Notes: generated by a model from the sequence alone, not told the origin. DNA of 64,000 bases from a virus (IMGVR_UViG_3300042197_003344:1-64000), one strand, 5' to 3'. Positions 35,447 through 43,751 are shown, counted from the first letter of the stretch. Translations and numbers: made by a program.

Positions 35447-35986
35447 TTAGATATCTCCTTCACTCTGTCTACGCTCACGACGAGCTGCTGCCAAAGTAAA
35501 AACCTTTTCGTTATCGTTGGTCCAATCTTCTTCGACAGGAGCCCCATTAATTGTGTGAGGCTCCTGCTCGTCATAGGTCCAACCCAAGCACTTCATCATC
35601 TTGTGCTTGACTAAGAGATTAGGCGAACGAAATACTTCAGTATCACGGAAGCCCATCATAACACCAATCTCGCAGACAGCACCACTGCGACAAACACCAG
35701 CCACACAATGAACTACAACGTTCATATGATTATCAAATGCTCGTTGTAGCAGTTGAATAAGTTGCTCAGCCTGTGCGTCAGAGATTTTCCAAGCATCGTT
35801 GATGGTGTCGTCTGACTTTTCTAGATCAAGAAATTCAAACTGATGAATTTCTTTGAACTGATAGCCGGGAGTAGGAAACTCCATATCAGGATCGACAATT
35901 TGAATCAGCATGGAATTAATACCTGCATCGATATGATGACCTTTTTTAATATCGCTCAGCGATACATTTTGGATCCACGGATTCAT
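35447..35986 (-). CDS. protein tyrosine/dual-specificity phosphatase-like protein
   Basis: HCVAGVCRS (CX5R). Confidence 0.85.
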   Translation of the reverse strand: MNPWIQNVSLSDIKKGHHIDAGINSMLIQIVDPDMEFPTPGYQFKEIHQFEFLDLEKSDDTINDAWKISDAQAEQLIQLLQRAFDNHMNVVVHCVAGVCRSGAVCEIGVMMGFRDTEVFRSPNLLVKHKMMKCLGWTYDEQEPHTINGAPVEEDWTNDNEKVFTLAAARRERRQSEGDI

Positions 35987-35996
35987 CTCGATTTCC

Positions 35997-36215
35997 TTAT
36001 AAACGATATGTGACACGACCTTTGGTTAGATCATAGGCACTGACTTCTACCTTTACTTTATCACCTAAAATTATTTTAATTTTATGCTGTTTCAATTTAC
36101 CGCCTGTATAGCAAACAATAGGTTTAGACATCTGCTCTAATTTAATCCTATACATACTGCCCGGCAGCACTTCTTCTACTACACCAACTAGTTCTATAAT
36201 ATCAGTTTTTGACAT
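35997..36215 (-). CDS. infA: translation initiation factor IF-1
   Basis: 72 aa; GVVEEVLP, IKIILGDKVKVE, YDLTKGRVTYR. Confidence 0.95.
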   Translation of the reverse strand: MSKTDIIELVGVVEEVLPGSMYRIKLEQMSKPIVCYTGGKLKQHKIKIILGDKVKVEVSAYDLTKGRVTYRL

Positions 36216-36253
36216 ATACGTCCTTGATCATAAATTATAATCTCCTTTGTATT

Positions 36254-36282
36254 ATTATAGTTTATTTTTTAATTACTGTCAA
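36254..36282 (-). promoter_or_regulatory. sigma70-type promoter upstream of infA
   Basis: TTGACA-N17-TATAAT. Confidence 0.8.
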
Positions 36283-36283
36283 A

Positions 36284-36357
36284 TGGTGCCCCATGGCAGA
36301 ATCGAACTGCCAATTGATCATTACGAGGGACCTGTTATACCATTTAACTAAAGGGGC
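36284..36357 (-). tRNA. tRNA-Thr(CGT)
   Basis: Cloverleaf, loop CTCGTAA, CCA; near copy of Thr(TGT) at 38863. Confidence 0.85.
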
Positions 36358-36361
36358 AGTT

Positions 36362-36435
36362 TGGAGCGGGTAGCGAGAATCGAACTCGCAAATCAACTTT
36401 GGCAAAGTTGTAGGTTACCATTACATCATACCCGC
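36362..36435 (-). tRNA. tRNA-Gly(GCC)
   Basis: Loop TTGCCAA, U73, CCA. Confidence 0.9.
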
Positions 36436-36436
36436 A

Positions 36437-37009
36437 TTAGAGATATTCAACGTCCGCAGCTAATATAAACCTGTATTCATTACTCTGCACTATTCCCGGT
36501 CTGTGCCATTTATCACCAGGGTAAATCAGCCAATTGTATTTGGAAGGTCTTACAAAAAATTTCACATCGGATTCTAAACCTTCCGGAGCGAATTCTGTTC
36601 CGCAGTAATCTAGATCTTTTACATCGTTGGGAATATCAAGATAAAAGATCCCGCTCATAATTTTAGATTCGGGTTTAGATGGATGCCAATGATGATGCCA
36701 AAGATTTTCTCGATTTTCGGCACCCTCAAGATTAGTCATAAATGACCAGGCCATCATATTAGAAACTTTAACTTCACGACCTAGATATAAGAAAACACTG
36801 AATAAAAAACTCATTCTATATTTTAACCAGATGTCTTCTGCTCTAGCAAAAATATTTTCTTTGGTTTGATACTTAGGAGAATTTGCAAAGTAATTTCCGT
36901 CAGCGATAATTTCTTTAATAATGCCTATGGCGATATTATTATCCTGCTCAGTAATTACAGAGCTAAAGTCAAACTTCCGGAAGGTATCGTTTTGATCTAT
37001 TACTTGCAT
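36437..37009 (-). CDS. putative 2OG-Fe(II) oxygenase
   Basis: WHHHWH, SGIFYL, GTEF, WHRP..RF. Confidence 0.6.
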   Translation of the reverse strand: MQVIDQNDTFRKFDFSSVITEQDNNIAIGIIKEIIADGNYFANSPKYQTKENIFARAEDIWLKYRMSFLFSVFLYLGREVKVSNMMAWSFMTNLEGAENRENLWHHHWHPSKPESKIMSGIFYLDIPNDVKDLDYCGTEFAPEGLESDVKFFVRPSKYNWLIYPGDKWHRPGIVQSNEYRFILAADVEYL

Positions 37010-37015
37010 TTATTA

Positions 37016-37093
37016 TGGAGCGGGTAGGGAGAGTCGAACTCCGCGATCTTCAGCTTGGAAGGCTGCTGGACGCCCCTTGTCCTGTCTACCCGC
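37016..37093 (-). tRNA. tRNA-Gly(TCC)
   Basis: Loop CTTCCAA, U73, CCA; irregular D and T arms. Confidence 0.8.
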
Positions 37094-37111
37094 ATAAAAC
37101 TATTTAACACT

Positions 37112-37186
37112 TGGCCTCGCTACCAGGAATCGAACCTGGATCTAGTTCTTAGGAGGAACTCGTTCTGTCCATTGAACTACAGCGAG
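37112..37186 (-). tRNA. tRNA-Arg(CCT)
   Basis: Loop CTCCTAA, CCA. Confidence 0.9.
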
Positions 37187-37190
37187 TAAA

Positions 37191-37269
37191 TGGTCCGAGT
37201 GGCAAGATTCGAACTTGCGACATCCTGCTCCCAAAGCAGGCGGAATGAACCAGGCTATCCTACACTCGG
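37191..37269 (-). tRNA. tRNA-Pro(TGG)
   Basis: Loop TTTGGGA, CCA. Confidence 0.9.
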
Positions 37270-37274
37270 ATGAT

Positions 37275-37348
37275 TGGTTGCGGAGGAGGGAGTCGAACCC
37301 CCAACGTCAGCTTATGAGACTGACAAGATACCATTTCTATACTCCGCG
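37275..37348 (-). tRNA. tRNA-Met(CAT), initiator-like
   Basis: Loop CTCATAA, C1:A72 mismatch. Confidence 0.85.
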
Positions 37349-37352
37349 TCAA

Positions 37353-37521
37353 ACTTTTATTGATAGTACTCAAGCCTTATAGGACTGAGCGAATTTCTGA
37401 GTGGAGTTCGATTCTCCTCATAAGCCATTGCTCACGGTTTTATCAGAAGAGTAAGATGGCCCTATTCCTCATGAGTCTGTGCGTCCACAAACGATACCCG
37501 CTGAATGCTATCAATAAAAGT
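37353..37521 (-). ncRNA. candidate structured ncRNA
   Basis: About 20-bp terminal inverted repeat plus inner helices CTCATGAG/CTTATGAG and GCCAT/ATGGC. Confidence 0.5.
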
Positions 37522-37728
37522 GTCTAGCCACAGTTCCCTGTTCCGCCCTAGACTGAGTTGTCTACCCTGTCGATCAGTATTTAGGTTTTTGTCGTCAGTT
37601 CTGCTTCTGCCGCCACGGTGTCTCAAGTCGCCCCTAAAGAGGGCCTTGGGGTCGTTACCGTTTGCACCCTGACATTCTGGTGAAGTCAATTACCCCCTTT
37701 AATAACGAGGAAGGGACCCCGGGGTCTG

Positions 37729-38307
37729 TTAGAGCAAGCCTTCTTCTTGAAGGACTTGAACAACTTCATCGCTGAGCGGAATCTCAGTTTTAATGTTCAA
37801 CTCTAAAATTTCATCATTGAGTTTTTGCTTTTGCTTTTTCAGGTTAAGGATTTCTGCCTTGGCCTGAGCGATTTGCTCCTTGCTAACCACAGTAGTACTT
37901 ACTGTATCGCCGTAGCCGTAAATTCTGCTACGAGCTTCGTCCTTGAGACTCTTGATCTTCTCAAGTTTACCTTTGATCACATCGAGATCAGTGTAAGGCT
38001 TCAATGTAGCCAGCTGTTCCAATTGACCAATCCTCTTGTCAATAAACGCAGCTTTAGCTAGTGTAGTATCAATATCACTAGCGGCATTAGCAGTACCAAC
38101 CAAAGCTCTGATATTATATAGAGCCATCGTCAGTTTCTGTCTACGGGCATCTGCCGTAAACAAGGCTTCGTTGGCCTTGGTCAACTCTACACCGGGATCT
38201 TGGAACTCGTTCAGTTCTACAGTGGTGTCGAAGCTGATGTTTTTAATTACATCATTGATGCTGTTCTGTACAGCATTAGCCTTGCGCAGTGTGATATTCA
38301 TTCCCAT
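37729..38307 (-). CDS. hypothetical coiled-coil protein
   Basis: 192 aa helical ORF downstream of rpoZ. Confidence 0.75.
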
Positions 38308-38528
38308 TTTGCCTTTTCCTTTTTCTTTAATTTTGTTAGATATTCTGCTTTGGTATACTTACCTTGTTCGATTTCTCTAAGAGCTGTAATAGTAGGAGAT
38401 GCATCCTTGCCGTCTACTCTTTGTAGAGAACCATTTTTAAGTTCTCTGGCACGTTGACTAGCTATCAGTACAAGATCAAATCTATTACCAATTTGCTTCA
38501 CTGCTTCTTCTGACGAAATTCTTGCCAT
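38298..38528 (-). CDS. rpoZ: RNA polymerase omega subunit
   Basis: [25 protein letters not shown]...TALREIEQG. Confidence 0.9.
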
Positions 38529-38559
38529 CTTGCTTCCTTATATTATACTGACGGATCAA

Positions 38560-38812
38560 TGAAAGGTCAAGTAATAGACCGGACAAATGACAAACGGATT
38601 TTATCAATCCTTGACAACGTGCAATAGACAGGCGACAGTGGCCTGAATATTTCCGATCAGCAATTGACAGGTATGTAAGAATCGGTTCACTCAAGCACGA
38701 AGACTTTTCAAGAGTCTTTGCCAGATAAGTTCGGATTAGGTATAAAACCTAAGCCTAGTGTCTATCCTCATCTACCTTTCACCTCACCGGTTGAGTTATT
38801 TCTAACTCAACA
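38560..38812 (-). ncRNA. candidate structured ncRNA / rpoZ leader
   Basis: Closing helices TGAAAGGT/ACCTTTCA and ATAGAC/GTCTAT, 5' hairpin GTTGAGTTA/TAACTCAAC, own promoter. Confidence 0.5.
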
Positions 38813-38818
38813 AAACTT

Positions 38819-38846
38819 ATTATACACTGTTTTATGTCTTTGTCAA
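38819..38846 (-). promoter_or_regulatory. sigma70-type promoter
   Basis: TTGACA-N16-TATAAT. Confidence 0.7.
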
Positions 38847-38862
38847 GACATTTTGATAATCT

Positions 38863-38936
38863 TGGTGCCCCTTGACAGAATCGAACTGCCAATTGATGAT
38901 TACAAATCAACTGTTATACCATTTAACTAAAAGGGC
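38863..38936 (-). tRNA. tRNA-Thr(TGT)
   Basis: Loop TTTGTAA, CCA. Confidence 0.9.
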
Positions 38937-38940
38937 ATAT

Positions 38941-39014
38941 TGGTGGAGGATAACAGAATCGAACTGTTAATCACGGCTTGCAAAGCCGTTGTTATCCCAT
39001 TTAACTAATCCCCC
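38941..39014 (-). tRNA. tRNA-Ala(TGC)
   Basis: Loop TTTGCAA, G3:U70. Confidence 0.9.
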
Positions 39015-39020
39015 AATACG

Positions 39021-39176
39021 TTAATTATTTTTCTTTTCTTCTTCTGCTAGGTATTCTTGAAGTTTGGCTTGGAACTCTGATTCACTTAATCCGTGCCAAC
39101 CAATACAATCTCCGGTTGGGCTACGACCACAGCCGCAGGTTCCAATTTTTTCTGTTGTATTAACTCTAACTTGCAT
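39021..39176 (-). CDS. small CDGSH-like Fe-S protein
   Basis: CGCGRSPTGDCIGWH; start MQVRVN with SD GGAG. Confidence 0.65.
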   Translation of the reverse strand: MQVRVNTTEKIGTCGCGRSPTGDCIGWHGLSESEFQAKLQEYLAEEEKKNN

Positions 39177-39177
39177 A

Positions 39178-39357
39178 TTATTCTCCCTTGTCCTCTCTAC
39201 GATTTTTCTCTCTCTTAGGTTGGATCGCGGCAGCAAGTTCTGCACCAATCATGGCACGTTTCCAATCATTACGTTGTTGTGTGCTAGAAAATTTACTCAG
39301 TGCTAAACTGGTCTTTAAAGCCTTTGACATCTTATAATTTGCGGTAGGTTTCAACAT
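39178..39357 (-). CDS. small hypothetical protein (59 aa, not in the ORF track)
   Basis: MLKPTANYKMSK...KGE with SD AGGA. Confidence 0.65.
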   Translation of the reverse strand: MLKPTANYKMSKALKTSLALSKFSSTQQRNDWKRAMIGAELAAAIQPKREKNRREDKGE

Positions 39358-39377
39358 TTAGTTTCCTTTTTTAAACT

Positions 39378-39470
39378 TGGTGGAAGGAGAGGGATTCGAA
39401 CCCTCGGACCACTTTTACAGAGATCGACGGTTTAGCAAACCGCTGCCTTCAGCCTCTCAGCCATCCTTCC
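39378..39470 (-). tRNA. tRNA-Ser(GCT)
   Basis: Loop TTGCTAA, long variable arm. Confidence 0.9.
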
Positions 39471-39476
39471 TAAATC

Positions 39477-39551
39477 TGGTGCATCGTAATGGAGTCGAAC
39501 CACTGACATTCGCCTTGTAAGGGCGACGTTCTACCGCTGAACTAACGATGC
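39477..39551 (-). tRNA. tRNA-Val(TAC)
   Basis: Loop CTTACAA. Confidence 0.9.
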
Positions 39552-39554
39552 ATT

Positions 39555-39637
39555 TGGTGCCCCAGGTCGGACTCGAACCGACACGCACTAGGCACTGGCT
39601 TCTAAGACCAGCGTGGCTACCATTACACCACCGGGGC
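39555..39637 (-). tRNA. tRNA-Leu(TAG)
   Basis: Loop CTTAGAA, variable arm present. Confidence 0.9.
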
Positions 39638-39648
39638 AAACAATGTAT

Positions 39649-39677
39649 ATTATGTATTCTTTGTTGACAAATGTCAA
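39649..39677 (-). promoter_or_regulatory. sigma70-type promoter
   Basis: TTGACA-N17-CATAAT. Confidence 0.65.
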
Positions 39678-39685
39678 CTATATTC

Positions 39686-39757
39686 TGGCGCCTCTGGAGA
39701 GATTCGAACTCCCATAACCTGGTTTAGAAGACCTGGCACCGCTCCATCGGCAGAGGC
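39686..39757 (-). tRNA. atypical tRNA-Arg(TCT) with shrunken D-arm
   Basis: Loop CTTCTAA, intact T-arm, acceptor and CCA; D region only CCGATGGAGCGG. Confidence 0.7.
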
Positions 39758-39762
39758 GTGTT

Positions 39763-39839
39763 TGGTACGGATGGTGGGATTCGAACCCACGAAACTCAGA
39801 TTTTAAGTCTGATACGTATACCTATTCCGTCACATCCGT
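39763..39839 (-). tRNA. tRNA-Leu(TAA), short variable loop
   Basis: Loop CTTAAAA; variable region GTTTC. Confidence 0.85.
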
Positions 39840-39842
39840 ATA

Positions 39843-39918
39843 TGGTGCCAACTCCTGGGATCGAACCAGGTTCTACCGCTCTTCAGGCGGCTGCAATGAC
39901 CACATTTGCTAAGTTGGC
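39843..39918 (-). tRNA. tRNA-Phe(GAA)
   Basis: Loop CTGAAGA. Confidence 0.9.
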
Positions 39919-39923
39919 ATATT

Positions 39924-39997
39924 TGGGGTGAAGCCGGGAATCGAACCCTGCCTTACTGTTTCACAGACAGCCGTGCAACCATTACACTAGCAACACC
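39924..39997 (-). tRNA. tRNA-His(GTG)
   Basis: Loop CTGTGAA, G-1:C73; two U-U mismatches in the acceptor stem. Confidence 0.85.
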
Positions 39998-40012
39998 ATT
40001 GATGGTATCGTC

Positions 40013-40198
40013 TTATTTTGCAGGTTCTTTAATTCTTTCAATTTTCTCTAATGCATCGCGACGCATTTTAAATTCACGATGCTCATTCGGACGATGAACT
40101 ATGATGTATTCTACACCATCAATGTTTTCGGTCACACGGATATCGTCACAGACAAAACGCTCATTATTAAAACGATTTTTAAGCATAGTTGCTTTCAT
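40013..40198 (-). CDS. small hypothetical protein
   Basis: 61 aa, SD AAGGAG. Confidence 0.7.
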   Translation of the reverse strand: MKATMLKNRFNNERFVCDDIRVTENIDGVEYIIVHRPNEHREFKMRRDALEKIERIKEPAK

Positions 40199-40214
40199 AA
40201 CAATCTCCTTGAAA

Positions 40215-40289
40215 TGGCCGGTCCGGAGAGATTCGAACTCCCGACTGCTGGTTTCGAAGACCAGAACTCTTCCACTGAGCTACGGACCG
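40215..40289 (-). tRNA. tRNA-Arg(TCG)
   Basis: Loop CTTCGAA. Confidence 0.9.
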
Positions 40290-40294
40290 GTGTA

Positions 40295-40368
40295 TGGTGC
40301 TCTAGACAAGAATTGAACTTGTGATTCTGTCTTACCAAGACAGTGTTATACCACTTAACTACAAGAGC
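40295..40368 (-). tRNA. tRNA-Thr(GGT)
   Basis: Loop TTGGTAA. Confidence 0.9.
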
Positions 40369-40369
40369 T

Positions 40370-40443
40370 TGGCAGGCGTGCTAGGGCTCGAACCTAGAAT
40401 AACAGAGTCAAAGTCTGTGGTGTTACCATTACACTACACGCCA
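40370..40443 (-). tRNA. tRNA-Gln(TTG)
   Basis: Loop CTTTGAC, G73. Confidence 0.9.
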
Positions 40444-40447
40444 ACAG

Positions 40448-40690
40448 TTATAGATCTTTAGCGTCCACACAGGTGCCGCCTTTGAACACATAGACATCGC
40501 TGTCTAATCTTAGTTGTTCAAAAACGTGATTATTTACACACTTGTAAGGATCTTTGCGATTTTGTACTAGGTAGACTGCTCCGAAACCTAGGCCTGCAAG
40601 GATCATTAGAATTGGAATGTATTTCAGGTACTTTACTAGTTCTGGCATCGCAGCTAATATCTGCGGCAGATTTTTCAGTAGCTCTTTCAT
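40448..40690 (-). CDS. small membrane protein
   Basis: Start MKELLKNL; one hydrophobic segment. Confidence 0.65.
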   Translation of the reverse strand: MKELLKNLPQILAAMPELVKYLKYIPILMILAGLGFGAVYLVQNRKDPYKCVNNHVFEQLRLDSDVYVFKGGTCVDAKDL

Positions 40691-40705
40691 ACACTTATTT
40701 AAGTC

Positions 40706-40780
40706 TGGTGGTAATGGAAAGAGTTGAACTTTCACTGGGCACCGTATGAAGGTGTTGCACTACCATTATGCTACATTACC
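40706..40780 (-). tRNA. tRNA-Met(CAT), elongator-type
   Basis: Loop TTCATAC, paired 1-72. Confidence 0.85.
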
Positions 40781-40865
40781 ATATAGAAACACACTTATGC
40801 CTTTTTCCTAGAAGGTGGCCTTTCCCAGTACTCTAACTATGTTTGGAGTTAAGTGTGTTTTTATA

Positions 40866-40940
40866 TGGTAGGAGCACAGGGATTTGAACCCTGGACCAAC
40901 GGATTAAAAGTCCGCTGCTCTACCGCTGAGCTATACTCCC
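40866..40940 (-). tRNA. tRNA-Lys(TTT)
   Basis: Loop CTTTTAA. Confidence 0.9.
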
Positions 40941-41002
40941 ATATAGTCCGTATTAAGTTGATTTACTGTGCCAACCTGGACCATACGGGATTCCAGGCGA
41001 CA

Positions 41003-41023
41003 CTAAGGTTTACCTCGCTTCAT
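41003..41023 (-). other. mini-ORF MKRGKP* with strong SD, followed by a predicted pseudoknot
   Basis: AAGGAGAAAGAC-ATG AAG CGA GGT AAA CCT TAG. Confidence 0.45.
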
Positions 41024-41044
41024 GTCTTTCTCCTTAGTGTTTGT

Positions 41045-41073
41045 ATTATATGTTCACTTCAATGTTTTGTCAA
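41045..41073 (-). promoter_or_regulatory. sigma70-type promoter
   Basis: TTGACA-N17-TATAAT. Confidence 0.8.
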
Positions 41074-41140
41074 TCCAAATCAACCCTATGATAACCAAAA
41101 TAATAACTGCGACCGCCCCATTTTGTTTTCTCCTTATAGT

Positions 41141-41215
41141 TGGTAGCCTATCTTGGGAACGATCCAAGGACCCCCGCCTTATCAAGACGGTGCTCTACCA
41201 CTGAGCTAATAGGCT
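41141..41215 (-). tRNA. tRNA-Ile(GAT)
   Basis: Loop TTGATAA; T-loop ATCG variant. Confidence 0.9.
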
Positions 41216-41220
41216 ATATT

Positions 41221-41310
41221 TGGTGGAAGCGGTGAGATTCGAACTCACGGACCCTTTCGGATCGTCTGTTTTCAAGACAGGTGCATTCAGCCAGGCTCTG
41301 CCACACTTCC
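41221..41310 (-). tRNA. tRNA-Ser(TGA)
   Basis: Loop CTTGAAA, long variable arm. Confidence 0.9.
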
Positions 41311-41318
41311 ATAATCTT

Positions 41319-41396
41319 TGGTACCCCTCGTCGGATTCGAACCGACACGATTCTCCTTTTGAGAGAGACGCCTCATACCAATTGGGCTAGAGGGGC
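41319..41396 (-). tRNA. tRNA-Leu(CAA), short variable loop
   Basis: Loop CTCAAAA; variable region ATCGT. Confidence 0.85.
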
Positions 41397-41400
41397 ATAC

Positions 41401-41478
41401 TGGAGCACAGGGTGAGATTTGAACTCACGGTTTTAGGGATTTGCAGTCCCTTGCATTGGGCCACTCTGCCACCTGTGC
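41401..41478 (-). tRNA. tRNA-Cys(GCA)
   Basis: Loop CTGCAAA, U73. Confidence 0.9.
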
Positions 41479-41484
41479 ATTGTT

Positions 41485-41558
41485 TGGCGTACCCTGAGGG
41501 ATTTGAACCCCCACCGACAGTTTTGGAGACTGTAATGCTGCCGTTACACTAAGGATAC
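41485..41558 (-). tRNA. tRNA-Trp(CCA)
   Basis: Loop CTCCAAA, G73. Confidence 0.9.
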
Positions 41559-41562
41559 ATAT

Positions 41563-41661
41563 TGGTGCCTCTGGCAGGACTCGAACCTGCACACGCCGGC
41601 TTATCTGGCCGGTGCTTTGACGAGGTATAAGCTCGTTTCTTTACCATTAAGCTACAGAGGC
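41563..41661 (-). tRNA. tRNA with UAU anticodon (Ile codon AUA) and a long variable arm
   Basis: ACGAG-CTTATAC-CTCGT; variable hairpin CCGGC-CAGATAA-GCCGG. Confidence 0.8.
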
Positions 41662-41667
41662 AAAACT

Positions 41668-41743
41668 TGGAGCGGGTGAACAGTCTCGAACTGTCGACCT
41701 TAACTTTGGCAAAGTTACGCTCTACCAACTGAGCTACACCCGC
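41668..41743 (-). tRNA. tRNA-Gly(GCC), second copy
   Basis: Loop TTGCCAA, U73. Confidence 0.9.
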
Positions 41744-41744
41744 A

Positions 41745-41819
41745 TGGTACACGGTACGAGAATCGAACTCGTCTTTCCGCCTTGAAAGGGCAGCGTCCTT
41801 ACCGATAGACGAACCGTGC
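41745..41819 (-). tRNA. tRNA-Glu(TTC)
   Basis: Loop CTTTCAA. Confidence 0.9.
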
Positions 41820-41825
41820 ATTATT

Positions 41826-41900
41826 TGGCTCCGAGAGTAGGGATCGAACCTACGACCAATTGGTTAACAGCCAACTGCACTACCGCTGTGCTATCTCGGA
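41826..41900 (-). tRNA. tRNA-Asn(GTT)
   Basis: Loop CTGTTAA, G73. Confidence 0.9.
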
Positions 41901-41909
41901 ATAAAACTT

Positions 41910-41984
41910 TGGCGGTCCCAGGGGGTAACGATCCCCCTCCTTCGGCGTGACAAGCCGGTATGCGTCCATGAACACCTTGAGACC
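41910..41984 (-). tRNA. tRNA-Asp(GTC)
   Basis: Loop TTGTCAC, G73; T-loop ATCG. Confidence 0.85.
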
Positions 41985-41989
41985 AAATT

Positions 41990-42078
41990 TGGTGGACCCT
42001 GAAGGAATCGAACCTAATCGCCAGCCACCCAACATATCAAGGCAACAGATTTACAGTCTGCCGTTGGGAACAGGATCC
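41990..42078 (-). tRNA. aberrant tRNA-Tyr(GTA) lacking a D-arm
   Basis: Acceptor GGATCCTG/CAGGGTCC-A-CCA, GCAGA-CTGTAAA-TCTGT, TTCGATT loop; no D hairpin. Confidence 0.7.
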
Positions 42079-42311
42079 AAAATTTGTAACACTCTCCGAC
42101 TATGTCTGTCAACCGCTTACAAGGCAGTAAGGAGAGTGTGTAATTAAGCATTCTCCTTTATGATTTTAGACGCCGTCGCAGGGCGAATGGTGAATGCTTA
42201 ATTACGCTAGTTTTTTTAGTCCCACAAGAGGGATTCCATCCACTAGGCCGCCCGTTTACGTTTTTATTACAGTGTGTCGCTAGGACCTCGTTCCCTATCC
42301 ACACTTGAGTC

Positions 42312-42488
42312 TTAGTCTTCGTAGACTGGACTCATTTGTTGAGCTTCGTATAAAACACGGGCTCTATCGATCTTATCTTGAATAAGTTTGCGTTTCTGTT
42401 CTTCATCTAGTACCTGACTAGCAGAAGCGTAAGCCTGTTCAACTATGTGTTGACTCAACTGATTAAATTCTTTTTCGTTCAAATACAT
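42312..42488 (-). CDS. small hypothetical protein (58 aa, not in the ORF track), first gene after the attenuator
   Basis: MYLNEKEFNQLSQHIVEQ...PVYED with SD AAGGAG. Confidence 0.7.
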   Translation of the reverse strand: MYLNEKEFNQLSQHIVEQAYASASQVLDEEQKRKLIQDKIDRARVLYEAQQMSPVYED

Positions 42489-42502
42489 ATTTCTCCTTAT
42501 AT

Positions 42503-42534
42503 AAACAAAAACCCCAGGGTTTTTAGTCCTGGGG
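42503..42534 (-). terminator. rho-independent terminator (attenuator)
   Basis: CCCCAGG-ACTAAAAAC-CCTGGGG-TTTTTGTTT. Confidence 0.85.
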
Positions 42535-42589
42535 TCCTTTTGTGGTTTGAGTTACTTTTTGCTTAACTCACAGCCTCCACGGACCCCGG
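42531..42589 (-). promoter_or_regulatory. antiterminator hairpin spanning the leader stop codon
   Basis: GGGGTCC/GGACCCC, GTGG/CCAC and TGAGTTA/TAACTCA; its 3' strand overlaps the terminator 5' arm. Confidence 0.75.
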
Positions 42590-42703
42590 ATATAGCTCTG
42601 GTGTACGATCATTATTAAAGAGACTAATCGCAGACCAAGAGATGGACATGCCTACCTGTTTGGCTATACAATAATGTCTTGATAACGATCTTACTGTGTT
42701 CAT
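42563..42703 (-). CDS. putative attenuator leader peptide (46 aa, all 20 amino acids)
   Basis: MNTVRSLSRHYCIAKQVGMSISWSAISLFNNDRTPELYPGSVEAVS*, with upstream AAAGGA. Confidence 0.7.
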   Translation of the reverse strand: MNTVRSLSRHYCIAKQVGMSISWSAISLFNNDRTPELYPGSVEAVS

Positions 42704-42753
42704 TTGCTTTGTTTTTTCCTTTAAATTATGCGCTATCTCTAACGCATATGTCT

Positions 42754-42782
42754 ATTGTATAGTTATTTAGTCTCGCTGTCAA
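42754..42782 (-). promoter_or_regulatory. sigma70-type promoter P1 of the leader/tRNA operon
   Basis: TTGACA-N17-TACAAT. Confidence 0.8.
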
Positions 42783-42848
42783 CCACTTTTGGTAAAATTG
42801 ATTACAAGCTCTGTTGCTTGTTTTGCAAGACAATTTAACTATGCACTA

Positions 42849-42877
42849 ATTGTATTGTCTGTTTATTTATATGTCAA
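42849..42877 (-). promoter_or_regulatory. sigma70-type promoter P2 (contains TATAAATA)
   Basis: TTGACA-N17-TACAAT. Confidence 0.75.
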
Positions 42878-42905
42878 CTAAAAATACCCAGATAATGTGG
42901 CATTT

Positions 42906-43148
42906 TTACAACAGTTTATCAGATTCGATTAGTAAGTGCTTACCAACTTCGAACATACCTACTCCGCCTACGAGATCAAGACAACTGGCGTGAACCTGTG
43001 CTTCGCCGCAGTCATCCATCGAACAGGCTACGAATTCTTTTATCTTTCCTTCCTCGATCTGTCGTTGCATTTCTCGCAACACTTCTAGCATCGAGATTTT
43101 TCTTTCTTCATCTTTTTTAGCTTTTGGATCAAGTGTAACTACATTCAT
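42906..43148 (-). CDS. hypothetical protein
   Basis: 80 aa, SD AGGA. Confidence 0.7.
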   Translation of the reverse strand: MNVVTLDPKAKKDEERKISMLEVLREMQRQIEEGKIKEFVACSMDDCGEAQVHASCLDLVGGVGMFEVGKHLLIESDKLL

Positions 43149-43157
43149 AAAAAATCC

Positions 43158-43751
43158 TTAGGTAATATGGTCTGCCACATTAAGATCTACACATTCTTCT
43201 GCTGTCAGATAAACATCAGACGGTGGCAGCAATTTTTTCTTGATCACGCCGGCAGCTAATCCGGTGGCTTCTTTCAATATCACTACCATTTTTTCATTAC
43301 AGATATCATTTTCTTTCATGGTCGCTTTGAGATCATGATATTTGTCACTCATAGTTTCGCTGAATTGATGACACATAAAACTGGTATTTCTGGCAGCATA
43401 TCTTTCGCCTTTGGTTCCTGCTGCAAAGATTAAAAATGCTGCACTCATCACTGAACCCAGGGCTATAGTTCTTACAGAATGACGACTATTTCTAATCACA
43501 TCGATCAGTGCAAATGCTTCGTAGAGATTACCGCCCGTTGAGTTTATGTACAGAGTAAGAACTTTTTCTTTGGCATCTAGATTTTCGTATAAAATCCATT
43601 TGATGCATTCTGAAATATTGCTCTCTTCAATTTCCCCAAAAAGATAATGTATGTTGCTTTCGAGTAATTTAATGTTGACGCGATCTTCCGCATTAAAATC
43701 ATCTGCTTTTTTGGTCACGTTTGCTCCTCTGGATTCACTATTACTTATCAT
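43158..43751 (-). CDS. clpP: ClpP-family protease
   Basis: LYINSTGG, GSVMSAA (Ser), FMCHQ (His), DVYLTAEE (Asp). Confidence 0.85.
   Translation of the reverse strand: MISNSESRGANVTKKADDFNAEDRVNIKLLESNIHYLFGEIEESNISECIKWILYENLDAKEKVLTLYINSTGGNLYEAFALIDVIRNSRHSVRTIALGSVMSAAFLIFAAGTKGERYAARNTSFMCHQFSETMSDKYHDLKATMKENDICNEKMVVILKEATGLAAGVIKKKLLPPSDVYLTAEECVDLNVADHIT

Follow-up and report, generated by a model that had tools for sequence, protein, structure and literature searches.

Organization of the locus

The window analysed here is the first 64 kb of a 77-kb IMG/VR viral contig that is estimated to be 22% complete, so it is a fragment of a giant phage. It has no near or distant DNA match among 50,697 GenBank phage records (INPHARED), and DNA searches and tblastn of the leader and switch likewise found no match; no cultured relative was found. 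All of the features discussed below lie on the minus strand and are listed in Table 1. Two promoters that each match the consensus at 11 of 12 positions are followed by a 46-codon ORF in which all 20 amino acids have appeared by codon 36. The ORF uses 35 distinct codons, including three Ile codons and five Ser codons. Codons 39-46 and the TAA stop codon form the 5' half of a long three-part hairpin (GGGGTCC/GGACCCC, GTGG/CCAC, and GAGTTA/TAACTC pairings), which is the minimum-free-energy fold and pairs the whole CCCCAGG arm of an intrinsic terminator. The 3' strand of the hairpin ends in the segment GGACCCCAGG, which is shared with the 5' arm of the terminator. The terminator is followed by a 58-codon ORF and then by the tRNA genes.

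Table 1. Coordinates of the features of the leader, the switch, and the tRNA array (minus strand).
Feature	Coordinates	Description
Upstream promoter P1	42877-42849	TTGACA-17-TACAAT
Proximal promoter P2	42782-42754	TTGACA-17-TACAAT; predicted transcription start near 42747
5'-terminal stem-loop of the P2 transcript	42748-42727	9 bp
Leader ORF	42703-42563	46 codons plus TAA
Conserved motif N-D-R-T-P-E	42613-42596	AAT GAT CGT ACA CCA GAG
Antiterminator hairpin	42590-42527	5' arm is codons 39-46 plus the stop codon
Shared segment	42537-42528	GGACCCCAGG
Intrinsic terminator	42534-42503	CCCCAGG, 9-nt loop, CCTGGGG, then TTTTTGTTT
58-codon ORF	42488-42312	AAGGAG ribosome-binding site directly after the T-tract
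First tRNA block	42079-41141	Tyr-like, Asp, Asn, Glu, Gly, Ile(UAU), Trp, Cys, Leu, Ser, Ile; no promoter of its own
Degenerate tRNA-Tyr-like gene	42079-41993	
tRNA-Ile(UAU)	41661-41566	26-nt insertion; added by Rfam
Internal promoter	41073-41045	consensus match
Rest of the tRNA array	40940-36284	has its own internal consensus promoters
Internal promoter	39677-39649	consensus match
Internal promoter	38846-38819	consensus match
Internal promoter	38570-38542	consensus match
Internal promoter	36282-36254	consensus match

A preliminary description of this region had proposed that the leader is an attenuator sensing every amino acid and gating an array of 31 tRNAs. The anatomy it described was confirmed with some corrections. 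ARAGORN finds 29 tRNAs, not 31; Rfam adds a tRNA-Ile(UAU), and the degenerate tRNA-Tyr-like gene brings the total to 31. Additionally, a protein ORF, not a tRNA, is the first gene after the terminator. The 58-codon ORF and the leader have no Pfam or PHROG family. A search with cmscan (E up to 1) over 35500-43500 gave only tRNAs and chance hits, with no leader, T-box, or riboswitch family; in 42479-42530 the only hit was a 26-bit nos_TCE match. No promoter-like site lies between the terminator and the first tRNA, or, more broadly, between a weak 10/12 site at 42754-42725, upstream of the leader ORF, and 41900. The preliminary description also cautioned that three internal promoters could limit direct control to the first 11 tRNAs. 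These are real consensus matches and two more were found, so that the switch can be the only gate for the 58-codon ORF and the first block of about 11 tRNAs, and most of the array can be made without it. No minus-strand ATG-ORF of at least 35 aa begins just downstream of an internal promoter, although the ORFs of 51-192 aa listed there were not examined as leaders.

Conservation of the leader and its residue content

In this one sequence the presence of all 20 amino acids is only mildly unusual and is not significant alone. Random peptides with the protein composition of the phage hold all 20 amino acids in 2.4% of 46-residue draws and 0.26% of 36-residue draws. In the six frames of the window, 1.5% of open 46-residue stretches (0.14% for 36 residues) and 2 of 48 ATG-ORFs of 40-55 aa do so. 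The case rests on relatives.

Viral contigs were searched with the neighbouring ClpP-like protease and the 58-codon ORF, which gave five distinct homologous regions at 68-82% DNA identity, all with the promoters, the ORF, the hairpins, and the terminator. Both hexamers of the upstream promoter are conserved in these loci. All six leaders (46-48 aa, 37-80% identical) hold all 20 amino acids by codon 34-39, with Cys, His, Tyr, Phe, and Glu at different positions. The ATG is invariant and every indel in the ORF is a multiple of three. The 5'-terminal stem-loop is present at the same place with a different sequence (GCG/CGC, ACG/CGT, GACAGC/GCTGTC), but it is absent from family members whose promoter abuts the ATG. 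A DNA pattern from the conserved NDRTPE motif gave 72 distinct leaders of 43-49 aa, of which 70 are complete. A pattern from the terminator alone, which does not depend on the peptide, added 49 more distinct leaders without the exact motif: 32 with 20 amino acids, 15 with 19, and 2 with 18. Some of these have almost no similarity to the peptide of this window and still hold 20 amino acids in 42-44 codons. In total, 102 of 123 distinct leaders from viral contigs are complete. A profile search of 5.8 billion proteins found 439 homologues, all unnamed and without Pfam domains, and an exhaustive search of 1.84 billion cluster representatives found 172.

Among 122 near-full-length representatives of 50%-identity clusters (median pairwise identity 43%, mean length 47), 90 (74%) hold all 20 amino acids and 97.5% hold at least 19. 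A null that draws each alignment column independently, and so keeps all positional conservation, gives 19% and 59%, and composition-matched random peptides give 3.8% and 21%. The family members are related, so sequence counts overstate the number of independent events, but the binomial P of 6e-39 is still 1e-7 if only 20 lineages are independent. The signal comes from relocation of rare residues. Cys is single-copy in 88 of the 122 representatives yet occupies 34 alignment columns, and His is single-copy in 98 and occupies 23 columns; single-copy Tyr also wanders between columns. When one residue is missing it is usually Cys. Synonymous diversity is also higher than expected for the same peptides, with 35.6 distinct codons against 32.2 expected (mean z of 1.7). 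These results indicate that residue completeness is selected. The preliminary description had proposed that homologous loci lacking the ORF or its residue diversity would refute its reading; instead, every homologous locus keeps the ORF and the great majority keep all 20 amino acids although peptide identity falls to about 40% or lower.

Completeness does not explain everything in the leader. The conserved core (AKQxGFMPxYW, NDRTPE) shows further constraints, and the codons of the motif just before the antiterminator arm are near-invariant in the synteny-derived relatives and are kept as GAT CGY ACA CCA GAG in loci found through the terminator alone, although the most divergent leaders lack the motif. 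Pairing between codons 23-27 and the NDRTPE motif, as in a trp-like 1:2 pause hairpin, appears in the fold of the window but is not kept in relatives. Pairing of the motif with the inner hairpin arm is only 5 bp and is absent in this window.

Structure of the RNA switch

Both alternative helices of the switch are under selection. The base of the shared segment that is C in this window pairs with G in the upstream arm and with G in the 3' arm of the terminator. Across 71 distinct sequences, the upstream partner, the shared base, and the terminator partner occur as G/C/G in 34, A/T/G in 23, A/T/A in 11, and G/T/G in 1, and no incompatible combination occurs. In 116 distinct switches the 7-bp outer stem of the antiterminator is paired in 95-100% of sequences and one pair covaries (A-T 62, G-C 45, G-T 3), while the interior has 106 different sequences that still fold, with a mean z of -3.8 against shuffles. 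RNAalifold on a MAFFT alignment of 116 switches confirmed the terminator pair that uses the shared base (C-G 48, U-G 38, U-A 28). It recovered only the terminator because the 5' arm is misaligned by one base between the GGGGTCC and AGGGTCC groups, and the antiterminator pairs were therefore counted with anchored scripts. The arm GGGTCC is read as Gly-Ser in some leaders and as Arg-Val (AGG GTC) in others, so the ORF tail is constrained as RNA and not as peptide.

The two states were examined by folding. Free RNA folds into the antiterminator in 108 of 117 cases (mean -27 kcal/mol). When the ORF end and 15 nt from the stop codon were masked, as a terminating ribosome would do, the terminator formed in 117 of 117 (mean -11.4 kcal/mol). 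The stop codon, which is TAA in 115 of 121 distinct leaders and usually lies inside the inner hairpin, is held 21-34 nt before the shared segment. The terminator of this window is modest, with a 7-bp GC-rich stem, a 9-nt loop, a T5GT3 tract, and about -12 kcal/mol.

It is possible that the ORF instead encodes a small functional phage protein with its own terminator, and that its residue diversity is inherited and kept by ordinary purifying selection. The conserved core, the invariant W, D, R, T, and P in the 72-sequence alignment, and the 439 family members fit this view, but we consider it unlikely. The column-profile null predicts only 19-25% complete leaders against 74-97% observed, rare residues relocate between columns, and the C-terminal tail is read in two frames. 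AlphaFold2 with 72 homologues predicted no fold (pLDDT 57, pTM 0.12), which is weak negative evidence only. A stable hairpin that masks the gene's own terminator, with covariation on both helices, makes no sense for a plain terminator, and the genes after the terminator have no promoter of their own. A small non-coding RNA running from P2 to the terminator, with an incidental ORF, is very unlikely. The unit is short (about 245 nt from promoter to terminator) and has strongly conserved hairpins, but the ATG is invariant, the in-frame stop is conserved, indels preserve the frame, there are amino-acid-level patterns across more than 120 distinct sequences, and no Rfam family matches.

Linkage to tRNA genes and initiation of the leader

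A same-strand tRNA array of up to 41 genes begins about 200-1230 nt after the element in nearly all loci with enough downstream DNA. Usually no tRNA lies upstream, but a few phages have 1-8 upstream, so there the element heads a second block. A small ORF usually sits between the terminator and the first tRNA, and homologues of the 58-codon ORF lie 32-84 nt (mostly about 50-65 nt) after the shared segment in 36 of 131 loci. Leaders that lack an amino acid tend to head arrays lacking that tRNA, in 5 of 10 cases against 74 of 830 otherwise (odds ratio 10, P = 0.001), although many arrays are cut by locus ends and the cases are few and related. In contrast, leader codons are not enriched for codons read by the array's own tRNAs (0.757 observed against 0.756 expected).

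A promoter-like site of at least 10/12 lies within 140 nt of the leader ATG in 117 of 121 distinct family members, and 53 of these are 12/12. In 32 of the 117 the -10 element ends 6-11 nt before the ATG, so those mRNAs are probably leaderless. Only 37% of leaders have any Shine-Dalgarno-like motif, and in this window the only such sequence, AAGGA, lies 14 nt before the ATG. That about a quarter of family members look leaderless ties the switch to initiation, and it could be that the switch reports only whether the leader is being translated at all, sensing ribosome availability, coupling of ribosome to polymerase, or the stage of infection, with the residue content a by-product. The untranslated RNA folds mostly into the read-through form, so any loss of translation opens the gate, and codon choice is not tuned to the array's tRNAs. 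This reading is also unlikely, as it does not explain why single-copy Cys, His, Tyr, and Phe are kept while changing position, why very divergent leaders still hold 19-20 amino acids in 38-50 codons, or why synonymous diversity is raised.

Proposed mechanism

The interpretation we favor, with a probability of roughly 0.7 on in silico evidence alone, is that the element is a ribosome-mediated (leader-peptide) transcription attenuator placed in front of the phage's tRNA operon that senses slow decoding of any amino acid. In this model, host RNA polymerase starts at P1 or P2 and transcribes a leader containing at least one codon for every amino acid. If the lead ribosome keeps pace, it occupies codons 39-46 and the stop codon while the polymerase makes the next 28-66 nt, and the shared segment stays free and pairs downstream, forming the terminator. 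If the ribosome is delayed at any earlier codon, or the leader is not translated at all, the more stable antiterminator would form first and sequester the 5' arm of the terminator, and the polymerase would run on into the 58-codon ORF and the first block of tRNA genes, with read-through also adding to the later blocks. Because selection keeps every amino acid in the leader, the switch would report a shortage of any usable aminoacyl-tRNA, and newly made phage tRNAs would shut it off again, giving negative feedback. The position of the last new residue in some leaders counts against the model. The full residue set is shown before the antiterminator arm in 78% of leaders, typically 3-4 codons before it because Glu of NDRTPE is the last new residue, and 22% complete it only inside the arm. 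On average 18.7 residue types lie at least 5 codons upstream of the arm, and in this window the Pro35 and Glu36 codons lie at the edge of the zone where a stall would leave the arm free.

The likely physiological meaning is control of phage tRNA supply by demand. More tRNA cannot cure true amino-acid starvation, so the signal (scarcity or damage of host tRNAs during infection) is inferred. A more tentative proposal is that the leader is a dedicated test-translation sensor, in which depletion or cleavage of any single tRNA species delays the lead ribosome and switches on transcription of the phage's own complete tRNA set. The preliminary description suggested tRNA cleavage by host anticodon nucleases as one such cause, which would make the element an inducible, self-limiting counter-defence, but this role is pure inference. 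Phage tRNA arrays are usually treated as constitutive codon-usage helpers or as replacements for tRNAs destroyed during infection, and how they are regulated is essentially unknown. A leader that samples all 20 amino acids and gates the array would show that phages measure the decoding capacity of the infected cell and respond by making tRNA, extending attenuation from one operon and one amino acid to a general sensor of the tRNA pool. It would also give a compact natural part of about 250 nt with consensus sigma-70 promoters. Residue completeness maintained while sequence and even reading frame drift is an unusual kind of selection on a coding sequence, and this signature could be used to find more such sensors.

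Comparison with known regulatory systems

Full-text literature searches found no account of leader-peptide control of tRNA genes or phage tRNA arrays. An inducible long tRNA array, the trn operon of Anabaena PCC 7120, is also an accessory array that is kept low and switched on under translational stress, but it is controlled by the protein repressor TrcR, and neither paper on it mentions a leader or attenuation (PMC8421152, PMC10272220). T-box riboswitches control transcription termination according to tRNA status and sit before translation-related genes, but they bind one uncharged tRNA directly and need no translation.

In the leader-peptide attenuators of enterobacterial amino-acid operons (trpL, hisL, pheL, leuL, and the multivalent thrL and ilvL), a short translated leader lies between the promoter and the regulated genes, the 5' arm of an intrinsic terminator is shared with a mutually exclusive antiterminator, and the position of the ribosome decides which helix forms, with a stall giving read-through. 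The phage leader has no runs of one regulatory codon but roughly one codon of every amino acid; Cys is single-copy in 65 of 72 leaders, His in 64 of 72, and Trp in 65 of 72. The regulated genes are tRNA genes of a phage and not biosynthetic enzymes, and there are three RNA segments with no 1:2 anti-antiterminator, so an untranslated leader is predicted to give read-through. In ribosome-mediated attenuators of antibiotic-resistance genes, such as the bmrB leader of bmrCD (PMC4191407) and mef/mel (PMC4335068), a stalled ribosome in a leader ORF prevents formation of a terminator, so general translation trouble is turned into transcription. Those respond to drug-stalled ribosomes at particular leader positions and control pumps or ribosome-protection genes.

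The closest published analogue is the whiB7 (wblC) uORF attenuator of mycobacteria and other Actinobacteria (PMC10274678), in which a uORF ahead of a terminator senses translation stress of many kinds. Knock-down of biosynthetic genes or tRNA/synthetase pairs for 18 of 20 amino acids induces it, and removing the Trp or His codons removes that response. The whiB7 uORF encodes all amino acids but Cys in M. smegmatis, lacks several in M. tuberculosis, varies in content between species, is enriched in Ala, and controls a transcription factor. In the phage family, completeness itself is conserved in a minimal 42-50 codons, Ala is not enriched (an average of 2.6 of about 47 residues), and the output is tRNA genes on a phage genome. 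There is no sequence relation between the two; the phage element is proposed to work like the whiB7 uORF but is not a member of that family.

Coordinates of additional features of the leader region and the tRNA array
Feature	Position in the window	Strand
tRNA with anticodon UAU	41566-41661	-
tRNA-Tyr-like sequence	41993-42079	-
N-D-R-T-P-E motif of the leader	42596-42613	-
58-codon ORF	42312-42488	-
Internal promoters of the tRNA array	36254-41073	-
ClpP-family protease gene	43158-43751	-
Terminator palindrome, scored on the opposite strand	42511-42535	+

Leader and switch region

In L134, L140, L089, L168 and 28 other distinct loci, about a quarter of the family members, the -10 element of the consensus promoter ends only 6-11 nt before the leader ATG and the leader is then probably a leaderless mRNA. 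The window instead has a 44-nt 5' UTR with a terminal stem-loop. The N-D-R-T-P-E motif is found at the same place in relatives, 3-4 codons before the antiterminator arm, and is fixed even in codon choice (GAT CGY ACA CCA GAG), although the most divergent leaders lack it. This motif could be a pause or arrest signal or an RNA site, but no pairing partner was found. The terminator palindrome, with its A-rich loop side, also scores as a terminator on the plus strand and so it looks bidirectional.

The 58-codon ORF is of no known family and starts directly after the T-tract of the terminator. Homologues hold the same place in 36 of 131 loci, and most other loci have some small ORF there. Additionally, one database protein from the representative search (P0184, 127 aa) reads from a leader homologue through the switch into a homologue of the 58-codon ORF. 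This protein is either a variant that lost the stop codon of the leader or an artefact of gene calling or sequencing.

The tRNA array and neighboring genes

The first gene of the array is a tRNA-Tyr-like sequence that has the GTA anticodon arm, the T-arm, and the acceptor 3' end. When compared with the tRNA-Tyr of two relatives (loci L051 and L016), it lacks about 12 nt of the 5' acceptor/D-arm region and has an insertion in the variable region, and it is either a pseudogene or a rewired tRNA. The tRNA with anticodon UAU (Ile, reads AUA) carries a 26-nt insertion in the variable region and was found with Rfam at 59.8 bits but was missed by ARAGORN. The leader uses one ATA codon. Five near-perfect sigma-70 consensus promoters, three of which match at 12/12 positions, are interspersed in the tRNA array, and no terminator-like sites were detected between them on the minus strand. 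Upstream of the leader lies a gene encoding a ClpP-family protease (Pfam CLP_protease, E = 1e-29), whose best phage matches, from Synechococcus, Sinorhizobium, and Ralstonia giant phages, are only about 41% identical.
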